DNA of 64,000 nucleotides from NCBI GenBank assembly GCA_963734635.1, contig CAVTIA010000008.1, positions 106,672 through 170,671 of the forward strand. Reading direction: 5' to 3'. Positions 50,193 through 59,024 of this stretch are shown here, one piece after another; position 1 is the first letter of the stretch; the number at the start of each line of letters is the position of its first letter. A program made the position numbers and the translations under genes. The notes under the pieces are model-generated. The model had not been told where the DNA came from. It saw only the letters and a list, made by a program, of their open reading frames with translations, and ran no database searches. The DNA comes from an uncultured Acidobacteriota bacterium. Lineage in GTDB: Bacteria > Acidobacteriota > Vicinamibacteria > Vicinamibacterales > UBA2999.

Positions 50193-50254
50193 GATCAGGC
50201 CGTCGGCGGGTGAATGCTACCATCGCCAGCATTTCCCGAGAGAAAGGCCTTTCC

Positions 50255-51224
50255 ATGAGCGCAGCAAAGCCCGCGGTCCTCGTCACCCGGAAGCTGCCGG
50301 CGGCCGTGGAGGACCGCCTGCGACGCGATTACCAGGCGCGGCTCAATCCGGACGATCGTCTCTACTCCCAGGACGAGCTGATCGAGAACGCCAGGGGCGC
50401 GCAGGCTATCCTGCCGTGTCACACCGAGCACTTCTCGGCGGAGGTCTTCGAAGGCCTGCCGGACGAGGTCAGGATCATCGCCAACTTCTCGGTTGGCTTC
50501 GACCACGTGGACATCGAGGCGGCCAGGAGAAAGGGCGTCGTCGTCACGAACACGCCCGACGTGCTGTCGGATGCGACGGCCGAGCTCACGATGATGCTGA
50601 TGATCGGCGCGGCCCGCCGCGCAAGCGAGGGTGAGAGGCTAGTGCGCGACGGCAGGTGGAAGGACTGGAGCCCGGCATTCATGGTCGGCACTCAAGTGAC
50701 AGGCAAGCGCCTGGGCATTCTCGGTATGGGTCGCGTGGGCCAGGTCGTGGCGAAGCGCGCCGCCGGCTTCGACATGACGATCCACTATCACGACGTTCGC
50801 CGGCTACCGCCGGAGCGGGAACAGGGCGCCATCTTTCACGAGACGCTGGAAGACATGCTGCCCGCAGTGTGACGTCCTCACGGTTCACTGCAATGTCACG
50901 CCTGCCACGCGTGGGCTGATGACGGCCCGTCTGTTCGACCTGTTGCCACGGGGCGCGATCTTCGTGAACGCGGCTCGCGGTGCCATCGTCGATGACGACG
51001 CGCTCGTCGACGCGTTGACGTCGGGCAGACTGCGGGCCGCCGGGATCGACGCGTTCAACCACGAGCCGCATGTCGACCCACGGCTCGTTGCCCTTCCCAA
51101 CACCTTCCTGATGCCGCACATCGGCAGCGCCACCGCCGAAACCCGTGATGCGATGGGATTCCGGGCGCTCGACAACCTCGACGCCTTTTTCGCGGGCCGT
51201 GAGCCTCGCGATCGTGTTGCGTGA
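50255..51224 (+). CDS. D-2-hydroxyacid dehydrogenase (glyoxylate/2-ketogluconate reductase-like); apparent 1-nt insertion at ~50862
   Basis: SVGFDHVD, NTPDVL, GMGRVG, VNAARG, EP, PHIGSAT. Confidence 0.88.
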
Positions 51225-51398: not shown

Positions 51399-52571
51399 AT
51401 GAGAAAACTGGTCTTCATCGCAGTTGTCGGCCTGTGGGGTCTCACAGTCATGGTGTCGGCCCAGGCTCCCACCGCAGCCCCCATTTGGACTGTATCCCCC
51501 GTCGATCGTTCCAACGTTGACTACACGCACATGCCGCTGTGGGCATACGGTGTAGCTGAGAGACCGCACGCTACCGACCCGCAGGCGGTGCAGCGCGCAC
51601 CCGGTGCCGCGCCCCCCGCGCCGATCCCGCCGGCGGAGGCCACGCGCAAACGGCGCGTCGAGGGGAGCCCGCTGACGTTCACTCTGCCTGAAATACGCGG
51701 GAACGTGGTGGATTGGTTCCCCGACGATCACCCGAATCCGATGCCGGGCATCATCAAGCAGGGCCCGGTTGCCCTCGGCAGCGGAACCAGGCCCTGTGGC
51801 GCATGCCACCTCTCCGACGGAAGCGGGCGCCCGGAAAACTCCTCTCCCGCGGGTCTGCCGGCGAAGTACATCCTTCGGCAGTTGGATGATTTCAGAAACG
51901 GCCGCCGCCACAGCGTGGAGCCTGGAAAAGGAAACTCCAACACGATGGTCATGCTGGCAAAAGCGATGACCGACGAGGAGATGAAGCAGGCGGCCGATTA
52001 CTTCTCCGCCGTCAAGTGGCGTCCGCACGTGAAGGTGATCGAGACCGACATGGTACCGGCCACGCGCATCCAGGGTGAGCTGTTCATCCCCACGGTGAAC
52101 AAGGCGACCGAGCACAAGCTGACCGAGCCGATCGGCAACCGCATCATCGAGGTCCCGACCGACGTCGACGCGAATCAGATCCTGAGAAACTCGCGTGGGA
52201 CCTGGGTGGCCTACGTGCCCGTTGGCGCGATCGCGCGAGGCAGGAACCTGGTCACGACTGGCGGCTCATCGATCGTGAACAATCAGATTGTCCTCGGGAG
52301 AGCGACGGCCTGCACCACGTGCCACGGGCAGGACCTCAGGGGCATGGGGGCAGACATGCCCCCGCTTGCCGGCAGGTCTCCAAGTTACCTCGCGCGCGAG
52401 ATCTTCGACATCCAGCAGGGCATGCGTGCTGGCTCGTACCCGGTGATGCCACTGATGAAGAAGGCCATCGAGAAATTGACTGCGGAGGACATCATCGACA
52501 TCACGGCGTACCTGGCGTCGCTACCCGTCGACGGCCCGGCGCCGGCGAACCTGACCCTCACTCAACGCTAG
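51399..52571 (+). CDS. Periplasmic diheme cytochrome c (c4/c553-like)
   Basis: Signal peptide; CGACH and CTTCH; YILRQLDDF, LAGRSPSYL. Confidence 0.88.
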   Translation: MRKLVFIAVVGLWGLTVMVSAQAPTAAPIWTVSPVDRSNVDYTHMPLWAYGVAERPHATDPQAVQRAPGAAPPAPIPPAEATRKRRVEGSPLTFTLPEIRGNVVDWFPDDHPNPMPGIIKQGPVALGSGTRPCGACHLSDGSGRPENSSPAGLPAKYILRQLDDFRNGRRHSVEPGKGNSNTMVMLAKAMTDEEMKQAADYFSAVKWRPHVKVIETDMVPATRIQGELFIPTVNKATEHKLTEPIGNRIIEVPTDVDANQILRNSRGTWVAYVPVGAIARGRNLVTTGGSSIVNNQIVLGRATACTTCHGQDLRGMGADMPPLAGRSPSYLAREIFDIQQGMRAGSYPVMPLMKKAIEKLTAEDIIDITAYLASLPVDGPAPANLTLTQR

Positions 52572-52598
52572 CGAGGCTTCGCCTCCGGACCGGTGAGC

Positions 52599-52695
52599 GC
52601 TGATTTCATTCGTACGTAGCTGGTTTCATTGGTACGTAGTGTCCGGCTTTAGTAGCTGATTTCATTCGTTCGTAGTGTCCGGCTTCAGCCGGACC
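52599..52695 (+). repeat. Tandemly amplified REP plus flank
   Basis: Three copies of ~CTGATTTCATTCGTACGTAG, followed respectively by no, a partial and a complete TGTCCGGCTT(C/T)AGCCGGAC. Confidence 0.8.
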
Positions 52696-52980
52696 AGAGG
52701 CACGCGAGTTCACGCGCGCAAGCCACCACACGGTTGCTCCAATCATCGCGAGCGGCAGGAGCGTGAGCATCGCGCTCATCGCCTGATACGCCCATGTGTT
52801 GTCGCTGGAGCCGATCAGGCCGCACACCGGACAAGCCAGCGCTGAAGCAGGCGTGGCCGTCAGCAGTGCCGCGGCGAGCCACCGGCGCGATCGCGCACGC
52901 TGAAGCGTGCGCTCTACACGCAGCAGCAACGGTAGCGCGCAGGCTTCAGCCTGCGCGACCCTAGAAATAGACTCGCGCAT
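52606..52980 (-). CDS. Small CPxC-motif membrane protein closing the cox operon (start uncertain)
   Basis: Signal-like segment ending ALA-CPVCG, then a TM segment; the C-terminus is REP-derived. Confidence 0.65.
   Translation of the reverse strand: MRESISRVAQAEACALPLLLRVERTLQRARSRRWLAAALLTATPASALACPVCGLIGSSDNTWAYQAMSAMLTLLPLAMIGATVWWLARVNSRASGPAEAGHYERMKSATKAGHYVPMKPATYE
52932..52957 (+). repeat. Second GTAG-REP type
   Basis: GTAG-CGCGCAGGC-TTCA-GCCTGCGCG. Confidence 0.7.
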
Positions 52981-53569
52981 ATATCACCGGCCAGATCAGA
53001 ACGACGAAGTACCAGAACGTCTGTGCGCCGAGAAAGAATCCGTACGACAGTCTGCCTGCGCGCAGCCTCCACCAGGCCACTCCGAGACCAGCGAGCGCAG
53101 CCGCCGCGTGCACCGCATGCGTCCCGACAATGACATAGAAGAACGCCCCGAGCGCGCTCGACCGCAGCGTCACGCCATGGCCGATCAGGCCCACCCATTC
53201 TCTCCCCTGGAGCATGACGAACAGTGCTCCGAAGAAGATGGCCGCGAGCAGGCTCTGCGTCGCGGCCGAGGAACGTGTCCGGTACTGGCGTCCGGCAACC
53301 CAGAGAAGCGCGCCGCTGGCGAAGAGCGCAACGGTGTTGAATGCCGTCGACACCAGCGGCAGCACCTGGCCGGCGGGCAGGTTCCATGCATCCCTTGGAG
53401 CGCCCGCCTTCGAAATCGTGAACGCGCTGATCAGCCCCGCAAAGAACATGACCTCTGTGCCGACGAAGATCACCATGCCGAGGAGGCCGCTCGGGACCAC
53501 CTCCTGCCGGGCAGCCGGCCGAACGATGCGCATGGTCTGCTGCATTCTGTTCGTTCGCATCACGGCCAT
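52961..53569 (-). CDS. Heme-copper oxidase subunit III-like (second copy)
   Basis: FVGTEVMFFAGL, FNTVAL, QGREW, GTHAVH, FWYFVVLIW. Confidence 0.88.
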   Translation of the reverse strand: MAVMRTNRMQQTMRIVRPAARQEVVPSGLLGMVIFVGTEVMFFAGLISAFTISKAGAPRDAWNLPAGQVLPLVSTAFNTVALFASGALLWVAGRQYRTRSSAATQSLLAAIFFGALFVMLQGREWVGLIGHGVTLRSSALGAFFYVIVGTHAVHAAAALAGLGVAWWRLRAGRLSYGFFLGAQTFWYFVVLIWPVIYARVYF

Positions 53570-53597
53570 CTAGTGGACCGTATCCAACTAAACACCA

Positions 53598-53957
53598 CTA
53601 ACGTTCGCCACCAGCCGTGGCGGGTTCCACGTACGTCTTCTGCCATCGCAGCCCGTCACGGGTGAGCACGTCCGGCGCCACTCCTCCGAAAAAGACCAGC
53701 ATGAGCGCCAGCATGAAGCCGAGGATATAGGTCACCCACTTCTTCTCGATGCTCAGGTGCATGAAGTACCTGCACACCACGTACGCTTTGACGATGGCGA
53801 TGCCAAAGGCCGTGATCAGGGTAAGGAGCCGCACACCGACCATCGGCCCGAGGACACTGATGCCAAGCAGGACGCAAAGAACGCCCCAGATCGCGACGTA
53901 GTTGGTTTCGTCGTGGTGAGCTGCGTCGGCGTGTGCGGGCTGAGCCATGGCGGTCAC
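53598..53957 (-). CDS. Cytochrome c oxidase subunit IV family protein
   Basis: YVAIWGVL, IAIVKAYVVCRYFMHL. Confidence 0.88.
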   Translation of the reverse strand: MTAMAQPAHADAAHHDETNYVAIWGVLCVLLGISVLGPMVGVRLLTLITAFGIAIVKAYVVCRYFMHLSIEKKWVTYILGFMLALMLVFFGGVAPDVLTRDGLRWQKTYVEPATAGGER

Positions 53958-54530
53958 TTGGCGATGTAGAGAAGTGGGAACAGGAAGATCCAGACGACGT
54001 CGACGAAATGCCAGTAGATACCGACGTTCTCGACGCGATGGAGCTCCTCGTTGCGCGCGGCCGTCAGTGACACGATGAACATGATGACCATGCCGGCAAC
54101 AACGTGTGCGGCATGAAGGCCCGCCGCCGTGTAGTAGAAGGACCAGAACAGGCCCGAGGTGATGGTGAAGCCCTCCGTGATTTCATGAGTCCACTCGAAG
54201 GCCTTGACCACCAGAAACAGCCCGCCGCCGACGAATCGTGTAGCGCAGCAGACGCGCCGCCTTCGGGCCGTCTGCCCGCCCGGCGGCCTGGTGCGCCAGG
54301 ACGGCAGACAGGCTCGAGGTGAGCAGCACCAGCGTGTTGAACGCGCCCGCCCACGTGTTGGTGTTCGCCGCCTGGTCGGCCCAGGCGTCATGACGCAATC
54401 GCATCATGATGTAGGAGCCAAGGAGACCGCCGAAGACGACGGTTTCCGACGCCAGCACCCACCACATGGCCAGCCGGCCGGTAGGCACGTCCATCACGCT
54501 GCGCGTCGTTGCGATGGGCCGTGAACTCAC
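53954..54530 (-). CDS. Cytochrome c oxidase subunit III; apparent 1-nt insertion at ~54236
   Basis: WVLASE, NTLVLLTSS, KAFEW, GLHAAHV, YWHFVDVVWIFLFPLLY. Confidence 0.9.
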
Positions 54531-54557
54531 TGATCGCTCCTGTGGGTACGCCTACGC

Positions 54558-56291
54558 CTACCGCCAGCCGACGACGCTGGCCGCCGGCGCCGGCGCTGGC
54601 GAATCGTCGGGCACGTGCTGCGGCCAGAAGTCTTCCTCCCGATCCTCGGTGCTGTACTCGTACGGACCACGGTAAACCTCCGGCAGTTCCGCGAAGTTGC
54701 CGTGGGGGGGCGGCGACGGGGCCGACCACTCGAGCGTGTTCGCGCGCCACGGGTTCGCGTCGGCGACCCGGCCCCGGACCATGCTGCGGATGAAGTTGAA
54801 GAAGAAAACGGGCTGCACGGCCAGCAGGGAGACCAGTCCCATGGTGGCGATGATCCTCAAGCGCTGAAGGCCCGGCGTAGCCAGATCGGGGAAGCCCGAA
54901 TAGTCGAAGATGCGGCGGTGATCTCCTGCAGCGCCGGTCATGAACAGCGGAATGAAGATGAAGTTGAACGCGATGATCGTGCCCCAGAAGTGAATCTTGC
55001 CGAGCCGCTCGTCCATCATCCGGCCGAACATCTTCGGGAACCAGAAGGTGATGCCGGCAAACGCACCAATGATCGCAATCGGAAAGAACGTGTAGTGAAA
55101 GTGGGCGAGCACGAAGTACGTGTCGTGCAGGTAGATATCCGCCCCGGCCGCGCCGAGGAAGATGCCGGTGACGCCTCCGAGCAGAAACTCGGCCACGAAC
55201 GACAGCGCCCAGAGCATCGGCGTCGTCAGCGTGATCGATCCGCCATACAGCGTGGCGATGTAGACGAAGAGCATTTCGGCGATGGGGACCGAGATGATGA
55301 GCGTCGTGATGGTGAACAGACTGGCCATCCGGGGATCGATGCCGGCAACGAACTGGTGATGCGCCCACACGAAGAAACTGATCACACCCGTGGCGACGGC
55401 CGTGTACACGATAGTCCGGTAGCCAAACAGTTTCTTGCGCGAGAACACCGGGATGATTTCGGCAACGATGCCCATCGCCGGGAGCAGTACGACGTAGACC
55501 TCCGGGTGGCCGAAGAACCAGAAGAGGTGCTGCCAGAGGATCGGGTCCCCGCCGGTTGCCGGGTCGTAGAAGCCGGTGCCGAGCACCTGGTCGAAGAAGA
55601 GCATGGCCGCGCCGGCGAGGAGTGGACCGACCGATGCCATGAAAAGGATGCTCGCGATCACGATCATCCAGACGACAATCGGCACGTCGAACATCCGCAT
55701 GCCTGGTGCCCGCGAATTCATCGCGGTCGTGATGAAATTGATGCCGCCCAGCAGGAACGCTACGAATTCGAGTGCGACCGCGACCACCCAGACCGTGGCG
55801 CCGTATCGCGTCAGGTTGTACACGGCATTGGCCGACAGCGGAGGGTAGGCCGTCCATGCGCCACCGAACGGGCCACCCGGAACGACAAACGACGCCACGA
55901 GCACGACCGCGCTGAGCAGGAAGATCTGATACGACAGGCGATTCACTTTCGGAAACACCATGTCGTCGCAGCCGAGCATGAGCGGGATCAGAAAATTCCC
56001 GAACGCGGCGAGGAGCACCGGCATCGCCACCCAGAAGATCATGATGGTGCCGTGCATCGTGACGAGTGAGTTGTACTGGCCAGCCGACACCCGTCCGAAC
56101 AGCGGCACGGATTCGCCGGGAAAGGCCAGCTGCATCCGGAACACGTAGACGGCGAAGCCGCCGATGAGCGCCATGAGCATCCCGGTGAACAGGTACTGCA
56201 TGGCGATGACCTTGTGATCCGTCGACCACAGATACGTCCTGACGAAGCCCGCGTCGTGGTGAGCAACGGGCGGCGCCGCGACGCTGGTCAT
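54558..56291 (-). CDS. ctaD: Heme-copper oxidase subunit I (A1-type GHPEVY, atypical K-channel)
   Basis: STDHK, TMHG, WFFGHPEVY, WAHH, HDTYFVLAHFHY, HRRI. The ATG overlaps the subunit II stop. Confidence 0.95.
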   Translation of the reverse strand: MTSVAAPPVAHHDAGFVRTYLWSTDHKVIAMQYLFTGMLMALIGGFAVYVFRMQLAFPGESVPLFGRVSAGQYNSLVTMHGTIMIFWVAMPVLLAAFGNFLIPLMLGCDDMVFPKVNRLSYQIFLLSAVVLVASFVVPGGPFGGAWTAYPPLSANAVYNLTRYGATVWVVAVALEFVAFLLGGINFITTAMNSRAPGMRMFDVPIVVWMIVIASILFMASVGPLLAGAAMLFFDQVLGTGFYDPATGGDPILWQHLFWFFGHPEVYVVLLPAMGIVAEIIPVFSRKKLFGYRTIVYTAVATGVISFFVWAHHQFVAGIDPRMASLFTITTLIISVPIAEMLFVYIATLYGGSITLTTPMLWALSFVAEFLLGGVTGIFLGAAGADIYLHDTYFVLAHFHYTFFPIAIIGAFAGITFWFPKMFGRMMDERLGKIHFWGTIIAFNFIFIPLFMTGAAGDHRRIFDYSGFPDLATPGLQRLRIIATMGLVSLLAVQPVFFFNFIRSMVRGRVADANPWRANTLEWSAPSPPPHGNFAELPEVYRGPYEYSTEDREEDFWPQHVPDDSPAPAPAASVVGWR

Positions 56292-56980
56292 CGGGTGGCC
56301 GCCCGCGCGGCAAGCGACGCTGGCGCCGTCTCCATCCATGCCGCGTGTGCGGCCGCCGACCGAATCCGCACACGCCCCGGCATCAGCCCGTGTCCGATCC
56401 CGCAGATCTCGGCGCACTGGAGATCGAACTCCCCGATGACCGTGGGCCGGAACCACCCCACGATCGCGCGCCCTGGCACCGCGTCCTGCTTGAGGCGAAA
56501 TGCGGGCACGGAAAAGCTGTGCAGCACATCCTTCGAATGCAGCTCGTAGTGATAGAGGCGGTTGACCTGCAGGTTCAGCACGTTCACCGTGCGAATGTCG
56601 TCGGCGGTGTCGAGCCGGCCGTCTGGTCCCGCGTGGACGAAGGTCCACGCCCACTGCTGCGCGATGATTCGGACGCGCTCCTCGGCGGGCGGGAGATCGA
56701 TCTTCACGTCGGACCACACCCGAAGCGCCGCCACGACGATGAGGATGTCGAAGACCAGGACAAGATAGTGCGGATAGTTCACCCACCTCGTCTCGCTCGG
56801 CTTCTCGCCGGTTATGTATCGAGCCTTCACGCCGGGACGCGCGCGGAACTTGACGATGAGCCAGAGCAGGACGAACTCGGCAGCCAGGAAGAAACCGCCG
56901 ACGATGAGAGCGATCAGCAGGAAGAGGTCGTCGATGTCGGCCGCGTACGACGACGCCTGGGTGACGTACCAGGAAATCAT
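56288..56980 (-). CDS. ctaC: Cytochrome c oxidase subunit II (CuA)
   Basis: Two TM helices, QQWAW, DVLHSF, CAEICGIGHGLM. Confidence 0.95.
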   Translation of the reverse strand: MISWYVTQASSYAADIDDLFLLIALIVGGFFLAAEFVLLWLIVKFRARPGVKARYITGEKPSETRWVNYPHYLVLVFDILIVVAALRVWSDVKIDLPPAEERVRIIAQQWAWTFVHAGPDGRLDTADDIRTVNVLNLQVNRLYHYELHSKDVLHSFSVPAFRLKQDAVPGRAIVGWFRPTVIGEFDLQCAEICGIGHGLMPGRVRIRSAAAHAAWMETAPASLAARAATR

Positions 56981-57100
56981 GAGCCCTTTCTCATGAAACC
57001 AGCAGGTAAGCCGCAAGAGCGAAGGCGAGCGCGCTCGCGACCGTAATCAGAAACACTCGGCGCCCGATGAAGACGGGATCCGGCTGGGGGTCAGGGCGCG

Positions 57101-57766
57101 TCATCGGAGAGTGCCTTGCTCACTGGACAGGGCGTGCACGTAGGCCGCGACCTGGTTGATGTCCTCGGCCGACAAGGGTGCTGCGACGGCCTGCATCACG
57201 GGTCCGAACGCATCGTCGGGCATCACGCCGCGCACTCCGCTCTTGAACTTCCGGATTTGGGCCGCCACGTACCAGTCGTCCATGCCGGCCAGCGGTGGGA
57301 CTTTGCCAGCTTCAAACCCCCTCCCGGTGACGCCGTGGCACGAGGCGCAGAGGAAGTACGCCCGCTGCCCCGCAGCAGCGTCGCTACCGCCGATCGCTGC
57401 GGTGCTGGTGACGTGGGGCAGCGATGCGACGTGCCTCGCTACTGCCATCGTCTCCATCTCGGAGCGCAGCTGTCGAGACATCGCCTGCATCCGAAGGCCC
57501 TGGACATCGTCGGCGTGCTGACCTCGAACTCCCGTCTGGAACCGCTCGAGCTGTGCCGAGACGTACCAAGCGGGCAGGCCCGCGATCGCCGGCGCACCCA
57601 GAGTCGATGAACCCTCGCCGGCGGCACCGTGGCAGGGAACGCACGCTTCGAACAACTCGGCTCCGGAGATCGAGGCGGTGACGGAACTACGTGCGCAACC
57701 GGTGATCGTCAGGACGCCCGTGAGACTGCCGACGGTCGCAATCATCCGTACGAATGAAATGCCCAT
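57101..57766 (-). CDS. Diheme cytochrome c4-like lipoprotein
   Basis: ITGC lipobox-like motif; CVPCH and CASCH; PAIAG..YVSAQL. Confidence 0.88.
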   Translation of the reverse strand: MGISFVRMIATVGSLTGVLTITGCARSSVTASISGAELFEACVPCHGAAGEGSSTLGAPAIAGLPAWYVSAQLERFQTGVRGQHADDVQGLRMQAMSRQLRSEMETMAVARHVASLPHVTSTAAIGGSDAAAGQRAYFLCASCHGVTGRGFEAGKVPPLAGMDDWYVAAQIRKFKSGVRGVMPDDAFGPVMQAVAAPLSAEDINQVAAYVHALSSEQGTLR

Positions 57767-57982
57767 CAGTTGTTCGCTTCACCGGATCAGGATGTGCGCG
57801 CATGACACGCCGGCGACAACGAGGCACCGCGCGGTTTGTCGCGCGGAGCTTAGCATAGGCAATCCGCGGGTTTACACCTCTGCCGGCATCGCCCAAGATA
57901 GACTCGGCGGGATACCGCGTTTGGCGGAAGCCATGTCGAGAGGTGGCTCTTCGACGTTGTCCGTCAAGGAAGTTCCGCGCCC

Positions 57983-59024
57983 ATGGACCAGACACCGTCA
58001 TCGGCACCGAGCATCACGACCGTCGACATCAGCGGTCCAGCGCGCGCTCTGGCTCTCCTCCGGTGGAGCGACTACCTGCTCGTTGTTGTCTGCGGACTGG
58101 AGCTGCGAGCGTCGCGGCCGATGTCATCCGCGCGCTCGTCGAAGCCCAATGGGTGGAAGCCCTCACATCATCTGCGTTCGTCGCCGTGTTCACGCTCGTC
58201 TTCCGCCGGGCGGCGCTCGACTTCGGACGTGCTGACACAGCTCTGGAGCCGCGGCTCGCCAACCACTTTCATCGCTTCGAGGCCGTTCATCGCAATCGAG
58301 TCGCCCACCGATTCGATTCCGCAACCCGGCGCCGCGCGTGTGCGGCTTGGAGACGACCAGTGGCAGAGGCGTGTGCTGGGATGGATCCGGGAGGCCGACC
58401 TCATTCTGATGCAATGCAGCACGACGCGCATGGGTGAGCTGGGAGCTGCGTCAGGTGATTGAGAATGGCCGTGCGGCCAATCTGATTCTAATGTGTCCCC
58501 GAGATCCAGGCCTGGCGGCGATCGAAGCGCAACCAGGATATCGGCGCGGTATGGAACAGATTCGCAAGGCGTTCAAGGACACGCCCAGGAACGAAGAGTT
58601 GATGGTGTTCGACGACTATCCAGTCTGCGTGCGATGCTGTTCCGCGAGGACGCGTCGATGGTCATGATCCGAAGCACGTCGCGCAGCCGCGACGATATCA
58701 TCTGGCCGCGACTCCAGGCCCATCAGCGGCTGATCGACCCGAAGAGCGCACTGCTGACCACGACAGCCGATGCGCCCCCGGCGTGCTCCACGCTGGGTCT
58801 TCGCCGGCGCCGCCGCCACGCTGGCCCTGGCGCTGATCGGATCCGTTTACAATTCGCCCCGAGGCCCGGCGAACGCCAGGCTCACGTTCAAGCAGGGCGA
58901 GCTCTACGACGCCGATCCCGTGACGGAGGAGGATGCCGCGCAACGGTCGGACGAGACACCGTATCGCAGCAGAGCATTCTTCTGCGGACGACCATTCCGC
59001 ACCGTCCAGCGGACGCCTGCGTGA
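57983..59024 (+). pseudogene. Fragmented hypothetical membrane protein (several frame changes)
   Basis: AAGGAA before the ATG; protein-like blocks switch frames (TM segments; PQPGAARVRLGDDQWQRRVLGWIREADLIL; WELRQVI; a further TM). Confidence 0.45.

Follow-up and report, generated by a model that had tools for sequence, protein, structure and literature searches.

The coxI gene of a 64,000-nucleotide stretch of DNA from an uncultured Acidobacteriota bacterium (GenBank assembly GCA_963734635.1, contig CAVTIA010000008.1, positions 106,672 to 170,671; hereafter the window) encodes the catalytic subunit I of a heme-copper oxidase (577 aa; 54558..56291, minus strand) that lacks the lysine of the K channel and carries three glutamates, at positions 197, 361 and 390 in Rhodobacter sphaeroides numbering, each invariant in a clade of 122 close homologues. 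Subunit II has changed in parallel, with an entry glutamate that is unconserved across the clade and a second transmembrane helix (TM2) that bears a new histidine and aspartate. The need for two proton channels in these oxidases is still argued, and the clade offers a natural test of proton uptake in heme-copper oxidases: it is a natural K362M enzyme, under strong selection in at least five phyla, with invariant buried acids and a histidine distributed over two subunits. The explanation that we tentatively favor is a new protonatable cluster at the interface of the two subunits, working with a D channel modified by E197.

Active-site and proton-channel residues

The coxI protein, obtained by translating its open reading frame (ORF), whose ATG overlaps the coxII stop codon (ATGA), scored 434.5 bits (5.9e-130) against Pfam PF00115, above the cut-off. 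Its score of 586.3 bits against the NCBIfam equivalog TIGR02891 (CtaD/CoxA) fell below the cut-off of 670.75, and we therefore regard it as a clear but atypical member of the family. A HMMER search of PDB chains gave matches to about 1e-125, with Mycobacterium smegmatis CtaD (7rh6, E 9.5e-125) scoring best and R. sphaeroides 1m56_A matched at 7.6e-121, and the AlphaFold2 model of the product had a mean predicted local distance difference test score (pLDDT) of 91.8. R. sphaeroides numbers are those of the window protein (P0001; L-numbers denote genome loci and P-numbers family representatives) plus a constant offset of 28, which fits H102, N121, D132, N207, H284-Y288, H333/H334, P358 and H419/H421. 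The landmark numbers themselves are those we take to be standard for R. sphaeroides, their use having been cross-checked in passages of PMC10341450.

A sequence-only reading of the window had listed six histidine ligands, the HPEVY motif, the D-channel residues N121, D132, N139 and E286 and an arginine pair, and translation and the clade alignment confirmed all of them. The ligands are H102, H284, H333, H334, H419 and H421; HPEVY (55494..55508, minus strand) holds H284, E286 and the cross-link Tyr288; and the pair is R481/R482; an H411/D412 motif is also present. In the clade protein set (122 close homologues of at least 75% identity in one alignment), the His and Tyr ligands are conserved in 121 of 122 proteins, HPEVY in 120 of 121 sequences, and E286, like the entire N121/D132/N139/S142/N207/E286 set, in all 122. 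Since the cross-link Tyr is placed in helix VI and HPEVY is of the A1 type, with no A2 YS motif, the coxI product is assigned from its sequence as an A1-type heme-copper oxidase. It does not fit the B family, which has no D-channel residues and an alternative K channel (Thr, Ser, Tyr), since the D-channel Asp, Asn and Glu are present and the K354, T351 and S291 positions hold M, I and A. Nor does it fit the C family (cbb3), in which the cross-link Tyr is in helix VII and cytochrome c subunits replace CuA, since this Tyr is placed in helix VI here and the enzyme has a CuA subunit; some homologues are named 'cbb3-type', but these names are generic labels of their sources. Nitric oxide reductase (NOR) motifs, defined by the lack of a cross-link Tyr and by H-X-Arom-X-E and HH-X-Arom-Arom-X17-E (PMC3084760), were absent by eye from the window protein for both cNOR and qNOR, HPEVY and WAHHQF standing there instead. 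A heme A synthase gene elsewhere in the genome is consistent with an aa3-type enzyme.

The A-type K channel is defined by K354, T351, S291 and Y280 in Paracoccus denitrificans numbering (PMC3084760), and of these four residues only the Tyr is kept in the window protein, the rest being M, I and A. In P0001, M334 stands at K362 (codon 55272..55274, minus strand, from the DNA and the HMMER alignment), I331 at T359, V337 at S365 and A271 at S299. The minus-strand DNA of 55140-55340 contains ISVPIAEMLFVYIATLYGGSITLTTPMLWALSFVAEFLLGG, and the HMMER alignment to 7rh6 pairs 'svpiaemlf' with 'avptgikff' and 'fvaefllgg' with 'flitfllgg'. Helix VIII, helix IX and the loop that connects them are gapless in this alignment, the sole gap between HPEVY and AHFHY being one of two residues in the helix VII-VIII loop, and no Lys occurs anywhere in helix VIII of the window protein. 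The substitutions T359I, K362M and S365V of the earlier reading thus stand, with S299A to be added. Its two glutamate codons, both on the minus strand, are likewise as described: GAA at 55275..55277 encodes E333 of P0001 (position 361, I361 in R. sphaeroides) in helix VIII, and GAG at 55188..55190 encodes E362 of P0001 (position 390, L390 in R. sphaeroides) in helix IX.

The clade is a distinct, conserved subfamily without the canonical K-pathway, as had been proposed. Both glutamates were present in all 120 best matches from a 90%-clustered library, which were 75-98% identical to the window protein and represent separate 90%-identity clusters, some with hundreds of members. Across the 122 clade proteins, E361 and E390 are each found in every sequence, and position 362 is M in 115 and L in 7. 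As a comparison set we used 128 family representatives of at least 500 residues, taken from the best 150 of 2002 at E 1e-30 and comprising 81 with the Lys and 47 without; E361 occurred in none of these and E390 in one. A second alignment, of loci, set 23 lysine-less rows (the window, 18 clade loci and four outgroups, namely L022, L023 (Ca. Calescibacterium), L038 (an Oligoflexia metagenome-assembled genome, MAG) and L046) against 56 Lys-bearing loci. Among the 18 clade loci, E361 is present in 17, with I in L014 (from the isolate Puniceicoccaceae bacterium K14), and position 390 is E in 14, T in 3 (L006, L015 and L017) and D in 1 (L016), so that the 361/390 exceptions comprise three E/T, one E/D and one I/E. 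Of the 81 Lys-bearing representatives, 15 have T, Q, N or E at position 390, which suggests that its surroundings tolerate polar residues.

The third glutamate, E169 of P0001 (position 197; codon 55767..55769, minus strand), lies in helix IV at the top of the D channel, is present in 122 of 122 clade proteins and is followed in the window protein by F198, A200 and F201 (S197E, G198F, S200A and S201F). E or D occupies position 197 in all 23 lysine-less rows of the locus alignment and in none of the 56 Lys-bearing loci, and the representative P0123 has E. An acid at 197 or 198 was found in 16 of the 47 lysine-less representatives compared with 0 of 81 with the Lys, and these 16 occupy at least four separate positions in the tree: the lineage described here, a lineage with Q or H at 362 that has E198 and E207, P0244, and P0240. 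The remaining 31 of 47 lack a helix-IV acid, which argues against a general rule. The combination of E197, E361, M or L at 362, and E390 is not due to chance.

The D channel itself was claimed by the sequence-only reading to be present, and the residues that it named are kept. Of the eight residues listed for P. denitrificans (D124, N199, N113, N131, Y35, S134, S193 and E278; PMC3084760), seven are kept (D132, N207, N121, N139, Y33, S142 and E286), and the eighth, S193 (equivalent to S201), is Phe. However, the channel lining described in PMC10341450 includes S197, S200 and S201, which here are E, A and F, and the upper D channel is therefore remodelled rather than simply present.

The lineage with Q or H at the Lys position (P0147, P0150, P0170-P0260) also has E198. 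Its members are mostly long proteins of about 790-860 aa (P0150 has 652), E207 is found in helix IV in all but P0147, and N121 is replaced in all but one. By these residues it is another rebuilt-channel family.

Subunit II, encoded by coxII (56288..56983, minus strand; PF00116 at 1.4e-14, 1m56_B at 9.1e-24), has an intact CuA site consisting of DVLHSF and CAEICGIGHGLM, and a coxII gene with the CuA motif (tested as H and CxExCGxxHxxM) was found in 18 loci. TM2 of the window protein carries E64, at the position of E101, together with H72 and D79, all with checked codons. The E101 position comes from the alignment of 'pSEtrWvnyP' to 'pLEiaWtivP' of 1m56_B, within a weak N-terminal domain match of 15 bits. 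The earlier reading saw no LEIxWT entry motif in this subunit; given the Glu placed by that weak alignment, we rejected the idea that subunit II of the window genome simply lacks the entry Glu.

Across 19 inner-clade sequences, 4 outgroups and 38 Lys-bearing relatives, subunit II nevertheless co-varies with the loss of the Lys. All 38 Lys-bearing relatives retain E101 in subunit II, as against only 3 of the 19 clade members and none of the 4 outgroups. A TM2 His directly after the conserved Pro is found in all 19 inner-clade sequences, in none of the 4 outgroups and in none of the 38 relatives, and the TM2 Asp, with a helix longer by 4 residues, is found in 23 of 23 members of the lysine-less lineage versus 0 of 38. 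The spacing of E64, H72 and D79 (i, i+8, i+15) would put the three on one face of TM2, the face that normally bears the entry Glu.

Distribution and ancestry of the clade

The clade is compact and widely distributed. A 50%-clustered library held one full-length clade representative (76% identity) and five clade fragments of 197-340 residues (P0124, P0132, P0201, P0229 and P0254; 76-86%), the next full-length representative being 66% identical and most others no more than 48%. Named close homologues belong to Vicinamibacterales/Acidobacteria, and the 18 clade genome loci include Gemmatimonadota, Myxococcota, Bdellovibrionota, Verrucomicrobiota and Eisenbacteria at 70-77% identity, so that the clade is present in at least five phyla. 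As judged from its sequences, it is under strong purifying selection. One clade operon, at 70% identity, lies on a contig labelled as a Klebsiella pneumoniae MAG (L017), a label that looks like a binning or naming error.

Phylogenetic analysis was performed with FastTree on 47 rows, fragments and most of the redundant Lys-bearing loci being excluded; support values are Shimodaira-Hasegawa-like (SH-like) only and the root is the midpoint as drawn by the program. The inner clade is monophyletic (support 100) and lies within a larger lysine-less lineage (support 100) that also contains L022, L023, L038, L046 and P0123. This lineage as a whole branches from within Lys-bearing enzymes, which come from Binatia, Gemmatimonadota, Verrucomicrobiota and Acidobacteriota, and with the midpoint root the loss of the Lys is therefore derived, not ancestral; on this tree the clade descends from Lys-bearing ancestors. 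L022, L023 and P0123 have neither the Lys nor E361 nor E390, and L038 and L046, also without the Lys, have E390 but not E361. The sequence-only reading had asked whether the glutamate pair co-varies with the loss of K362, and these rows show that it does not do so simply. Because basal members of the lineage lack both the Lys and the glutamates, the pair is a late addition that followed the loss of the Lys.

The window genome contains three A-family subunit I genes. The second copy is 47% identical to the first and also lacks the Lys, and the third is 41% identical and is an A2-type caa3 enzyme with the Lys. The 47% copy (L002; G000:C5:203465-208168) has WFLAHPEVY, a helix VIII reading IPSVVILT and no helix-IV acid. 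A cupredoxin-like gene (HxxH...CxxHPWM) precedes its subunit I in place of an obvious coxII, and the locus lies near an ACIII-like membrane gene.

Possible routes of proton uptake

The active site, the CuA site and the cytochrome c partner described below together indicate that the enzyme is most likely a working O2-reducing cytochrome c oxidase that receives electrons via CuA. Decay of the K-path residues of subunit I has been accompanied by decay of the subunit II entry Glu, from which we conclude that the canonical K-pathway is no longer used. The scheme that we tentatively favor would start from its abandonment in both subunits, through S299A, T359I/V, K362M/L and S365V in subunit I and an unconserved entry Glu in subunit II. 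Three acquisitions would then have occurred: first Glu 197 of helix IV, next to E286 in the uppermost part of the D channel, along with the TM2 Asp of subunit II; then E390 in helix IX; and then E361 on the outer face of helix VIII, with the His on the entry-Glu face of TM2. E361, E390, His72 of subunit II and perhaps its Asp79 would make up a protonatable cluster, level with K362, where helices VIII and IX of subunit I meet TM2 of subunit II. This cluster would take over the delivery or buffering of the 'K-type' substrate protons, and the D channel remodelled with E197 would carry the remaining ones. What is observed is which residues are present, how conserved they are, in what order they appeared and how they co-vary between subunits; we infer the depth and facing of the cluster, and any proton transfer through it.

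Several lines of evidence bear on the geometry. The face of helix VIII that varies within the clade lies 39 degrees from E361, and positions 359, 362 and 366 lie at 139-179 degrees. E361 is thus on the outer, variable face of helix VIII and not in the old channel lumen; the conservation of both glutamates, on which the earlier reading depended, is borne out by their invariance among the 122 proteins. E390 occupies a flank position on helix IX, at 109 degrees to the variable face, and shares a stripe with G394 and G398; G398, two turns from 390, is a corner of the K-channel volume in the account of PMC10341450. In the bovine enzyme, cholate binds at the K-path entrance, on a transmembrane surface that brings together subunit I (helices VII and VIII) and subunit II (helix II) (passages of PMC6778200). 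From hydronium positions given in PMC10341450 we derived that K362 is ~10 Å above E101, and H72 is eight residues, or about 12 Å along the helix, above E64; E361 and H72 are therefore plausibly level and facing. The VIII-IX loop is equally far from 361 and from 390. Between the two helices, a mutual-information scan (213 sequences, with a signal confounded by lineage) placed its top pairs at i+j of 747-759 in R. sphaeroides numbering, seven of the ten within 747-752, which fits an antiparallel register with 361 and 390 level.

Other results weigh against the interface cluster. The basal members L022, L023 and P0123 lack the Lys, E361, E390 and the His, so the cluster is not needed for a lysine-less enzyme to persist. 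By the conservation analysis E361 is directed away from the lumen of the old channel, and positions 299 and 359 of the upper K-pathway are hydrophobic, so that no evident route leads from the cluster to Y288. Neither glutamate is fixed in the clade loci (T at 390 in 3 of 18, I at 361 in 1 of 18), the 361-390 pair gave no specific mutual-information signal (rank 62 of 600 in the 213 lineage-confounded sequences), and the literature searched contained no expression or assay of any clade member.

In the main alternative, the K-pathway would have been lost without replacement, all protons would pass through a D channel adapted by the helix-IV Glu, and E361, E390, the His and the Asp would form a buried, hydrogen-bonded and non-conducting cluster that joins the subunits or tunes electrostatics. 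Consistent with this idea, E or D at 197 is shared by all 23 lysine-less rows, the 122 homologues and P0123, including members without E361 and E390; an acid at 197/198 separates lysine-less representatives (16 of 47) from Lys-bearing ones (0 of 81, and 0 of 56 loci) and appears convergently, at four or more places in the tree; the old lumen is filled by A, I, M and V; E361 is on the outer face of helix VIII; and basal members of the lineage lack the Glu pair. On the other hand, four invariant buried ionizable residues would be costly in a purely structural role, and they occupy the TM2 face, and the depth, of the former proton entry. Furthermore, 31 of the 47 lysine-less representatives manage without a helix-IV acid, which is thus not a general requirement, and the bulk of S201F and G198F falls at positions in or adjoining the listed D-channel lining. 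We consider an oxidase that relies on the D channel in this way possible, though on balance rather unlikely.

A cation site for Na+ or a divalent metal, which would change the coupling ion or regulate the enzyme, appears improbable. Metals are commonly bound by one His together with two or three carboxylates, and Cd2+/Zn2+ bind at the entrance of the canonical K path (E101/H96 of subunit II), but we found no sequence feature specific for Na+ coupling, the enzyme has the D channel, E286 and Arg pair of a proton pump, and the clade hosts are ordinary soil and sediment lineages. It is very improbable that the enzyme reduces NO or peroxide rather than O2: remodelled proton channels do occur in several NOR families (passages of PMC11214002), but the cross-link Tyr and the three CuB His are kept in 121 of 122 clade proteins and HPEVY in 120 of 121, CuA is intact and the NOR motifs of PMC3084760 are absent. 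Thus the NO, peroxide or Na+ roles raised by the sequence-only reading are not favored. Decay of the window copy into a pseudogene cluster is likewise highly unlikely, despite a frameshift in coxIII, given that coxI, coxII, coxIV and the second coxIII are intact, that the frameshift amounts to one base within a GGCGGCGGG run, that an unrelated neighboring gene is also split, and that the clade is under strong purifying selection.

A broader and more doubtful proposal is that A-family oxidases can dispense with the K-pathway by recurrent, convergent redesign, using a helix-IV carboxylate beside E286 and, in this clade, a Glu-Glu-His-Asp relay along the subunit I/II interface. If true, this would be a third proton-input architecture, in addition to the K pathway and to its analogues in the B and C families, and pumping stoichiometry or the coupling ion might be altered. 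The compensating residues form a testable list: E197, E361, E390, His72 and Asp79, the last two in subunit II. The clade is common in soil metagenomes and therefore bears on the respiration of abundant Acidobacteriota, Gemmatimonadota and Myxococcota.

The operon and its place among known oxidases

The operon order (dihaem cytochrome c, a 37-aa ORF, coxII, coxI, coxIII, coxIV, a second coxIII-like gene and a gene for a CPVC protein, all on the minus strand) recurs across the clade loci. The dihaem cytochrome c at its head (57101..57766; two CxxCH motifs; PF00034 at 7.6e-21) is likely the electron donor, and a cytochrome c gene is found upstream of coxI in all 18 clade loci that have upstream sequence, the remaining one of the 19, L018, starting inside coxI. 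Between this gene and coxII lies an ORF of 37 aa with a single membrane helix (56991..57104), the ATG of which overlaps the cytochrome c stop. It had no Pfam match, but in a crude scan 11 of 19 clade loci had a similar short one-helix ORF in this location, and it may be an unannotated small oxidase subunit. Downstream of coxIII, coxIV (53598..53957; caa3-type subunit IV, TIGR02229 at 42.9 bits, above the cut-off; PF03626) is conserved in the clade loci, and the second subunit-III-like gene (52961..53569; PF00510 at 5.3e-16) keeps its position in them. The last gene of the cluster is an ORF for a small membrane protein with a CPVC motif (52606..52980), which had only a sub-threshold Pfam match and is not assigned to a family; of the 19 clade loci searched, 7 gave tblastn matches to it (E no greater than 1e-5), located downstream of the second coxIII.

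CoxIII (53954..54530, minus strand) is read in two frames. A tblastn search with the subunit III of L013 (74-75% identity) passed from frame +2 to frame +3, placing a single-base, +1 frameshift near 54229-54234 in a GGCGGCGGG run; the gene appears in the window as overlapping ORFs at 54183-54530 and 53954-54391, in contrast to a single frame in relatives. An unrelated gene, for a D-2-hydroxyacid dehydrogenase (50210-51224, plus strand), is also split, into 50210-50872 and 50919-51224, which is probably a second assembly indel. The coxIII frameshift therefore likely arose in assembly, and the indel errors that the earlier reading had reported elsewhere in the window are real. Upstream of the operon no -24/-12 sigma-54 match was found, the window holding 17 at two mismatches compared with 25 expected by chance, and no sigma-70-like promoter was found in 52400-58600. 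The passages used of PMC11841059 deal with an M. xanthus operon of the cbb3 type.

Oxidases of the A family without the Lys have been described before, as the earlier reading had suspected. Together with loss of the COX2 Glu, they were noted in acidophilic iron oxidizers and relatives (Degli Esposti, bioRxiv 10.1101/2020.03.01.968255), and K-channel variants have been tabulated across bacteria and archaea, with several independent losses inferred (Degli Esposti, Front Microbiol 2021, PMC8239418, Tables S1 and S3). The survey recognizes an 'A1 KC channel' group (Elusimicrobia, Calescamantes and Methylacidiphilaceae) and lists 'Oligoflexia' separately; like the clade, both have the A1 HPEVY, a hydrophobic residue for K354 and loss of COX2 E78, and our tree places Calescibacterium (L023) and the Oligoflexia MAG (L038) as outgroups of the clade in the same lysine-less lineage. 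The survey's 'KC-channel' class is characterized by residues equivalent to S240, S244, H247 and Y255 of V. cholerae CcoN; our comparison with these groups covered K354, T351, S357, S291 and E78 of subunit II. Within Tables S1 and S3 and the text passages of PMC8239418, the Gemmatimonadota/Myxococcota/Vicinamibacterales clade does not appear, a 'Gemmatimonadetes' group being scored 'generally yes' for the K channel, and in those two tables positions 197, 361 and 390 and the TM2 His and Asp are not tabulated. A description of the clade, or of Glu at 361 or 390, was not found in the literature searched, although the bioRxiv supplements and the supplementary figures of PMC8239418, outside that scope, might tabulate it. 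We conclude that, as far as these published tables go, the clade and its Glu/His/Asp signature are absent from them.

Compared with canonical A1 aa3 enzymes (R. sphaeroides 1M56, P. denitrificans 1AR1/1QLE and M. smegmatis 7RH6/6ADQ), the window enzyme has the same twelve-helix subunit I, six His and HPEVY, and it shares D132/N121/N139/S142/N207/E286, R481/R482, H411/D412, a CuA subunit II and subunits III and IV. It differs in S299A, T359I, K362M, S365V, E361, E390, E197, S200A, S201F and G198F, and the clade differs in its unconserved entry Glu and in a TM2 longer by 4 residues with a His and an Asp. Two further differences are clade-specific and adjoin functionally sensitive sites: Gln at 335 (residue 307 of P0001), after the CuB His pair (WAHHQF versus WAHHMF), and His at 480 (residue 452 of P0001), before the Arg pair (DHRR versus MPRR).

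Other known systems share single features with this enzyme. In the aa3 oxidases of rus operons (Acidithiobacillus and Acidiferrobacter), the Lys is replaced by I, V, M, L or F and the COX2 entry Glu is also replaced, with the D channel kept, but the published tables set them apart as a separate group with extra N-terminal helices and acidophile hosts (PMC8239418). The COX operon subtype a-III of Degli Esposti has two COX3 genes, as does the operon here with its two subunit-III-like genes, but is scored with a K channel, unlike the window operon. Finally, the K-channel region of sNOR, in passages of Murali et al. 2024 (PMC11214002), contains a conserved Glu that takes over from a canonical hydroxyl residue but occupies a 'structurally different location'. 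That enzyme is B-family-related with a modified active site, whereas the window enzyme has the active site of an O2 reductase, and the relocated Glu of sNOR may serve, by analogy only, as a precedent for a glutamate in the K-channel region.

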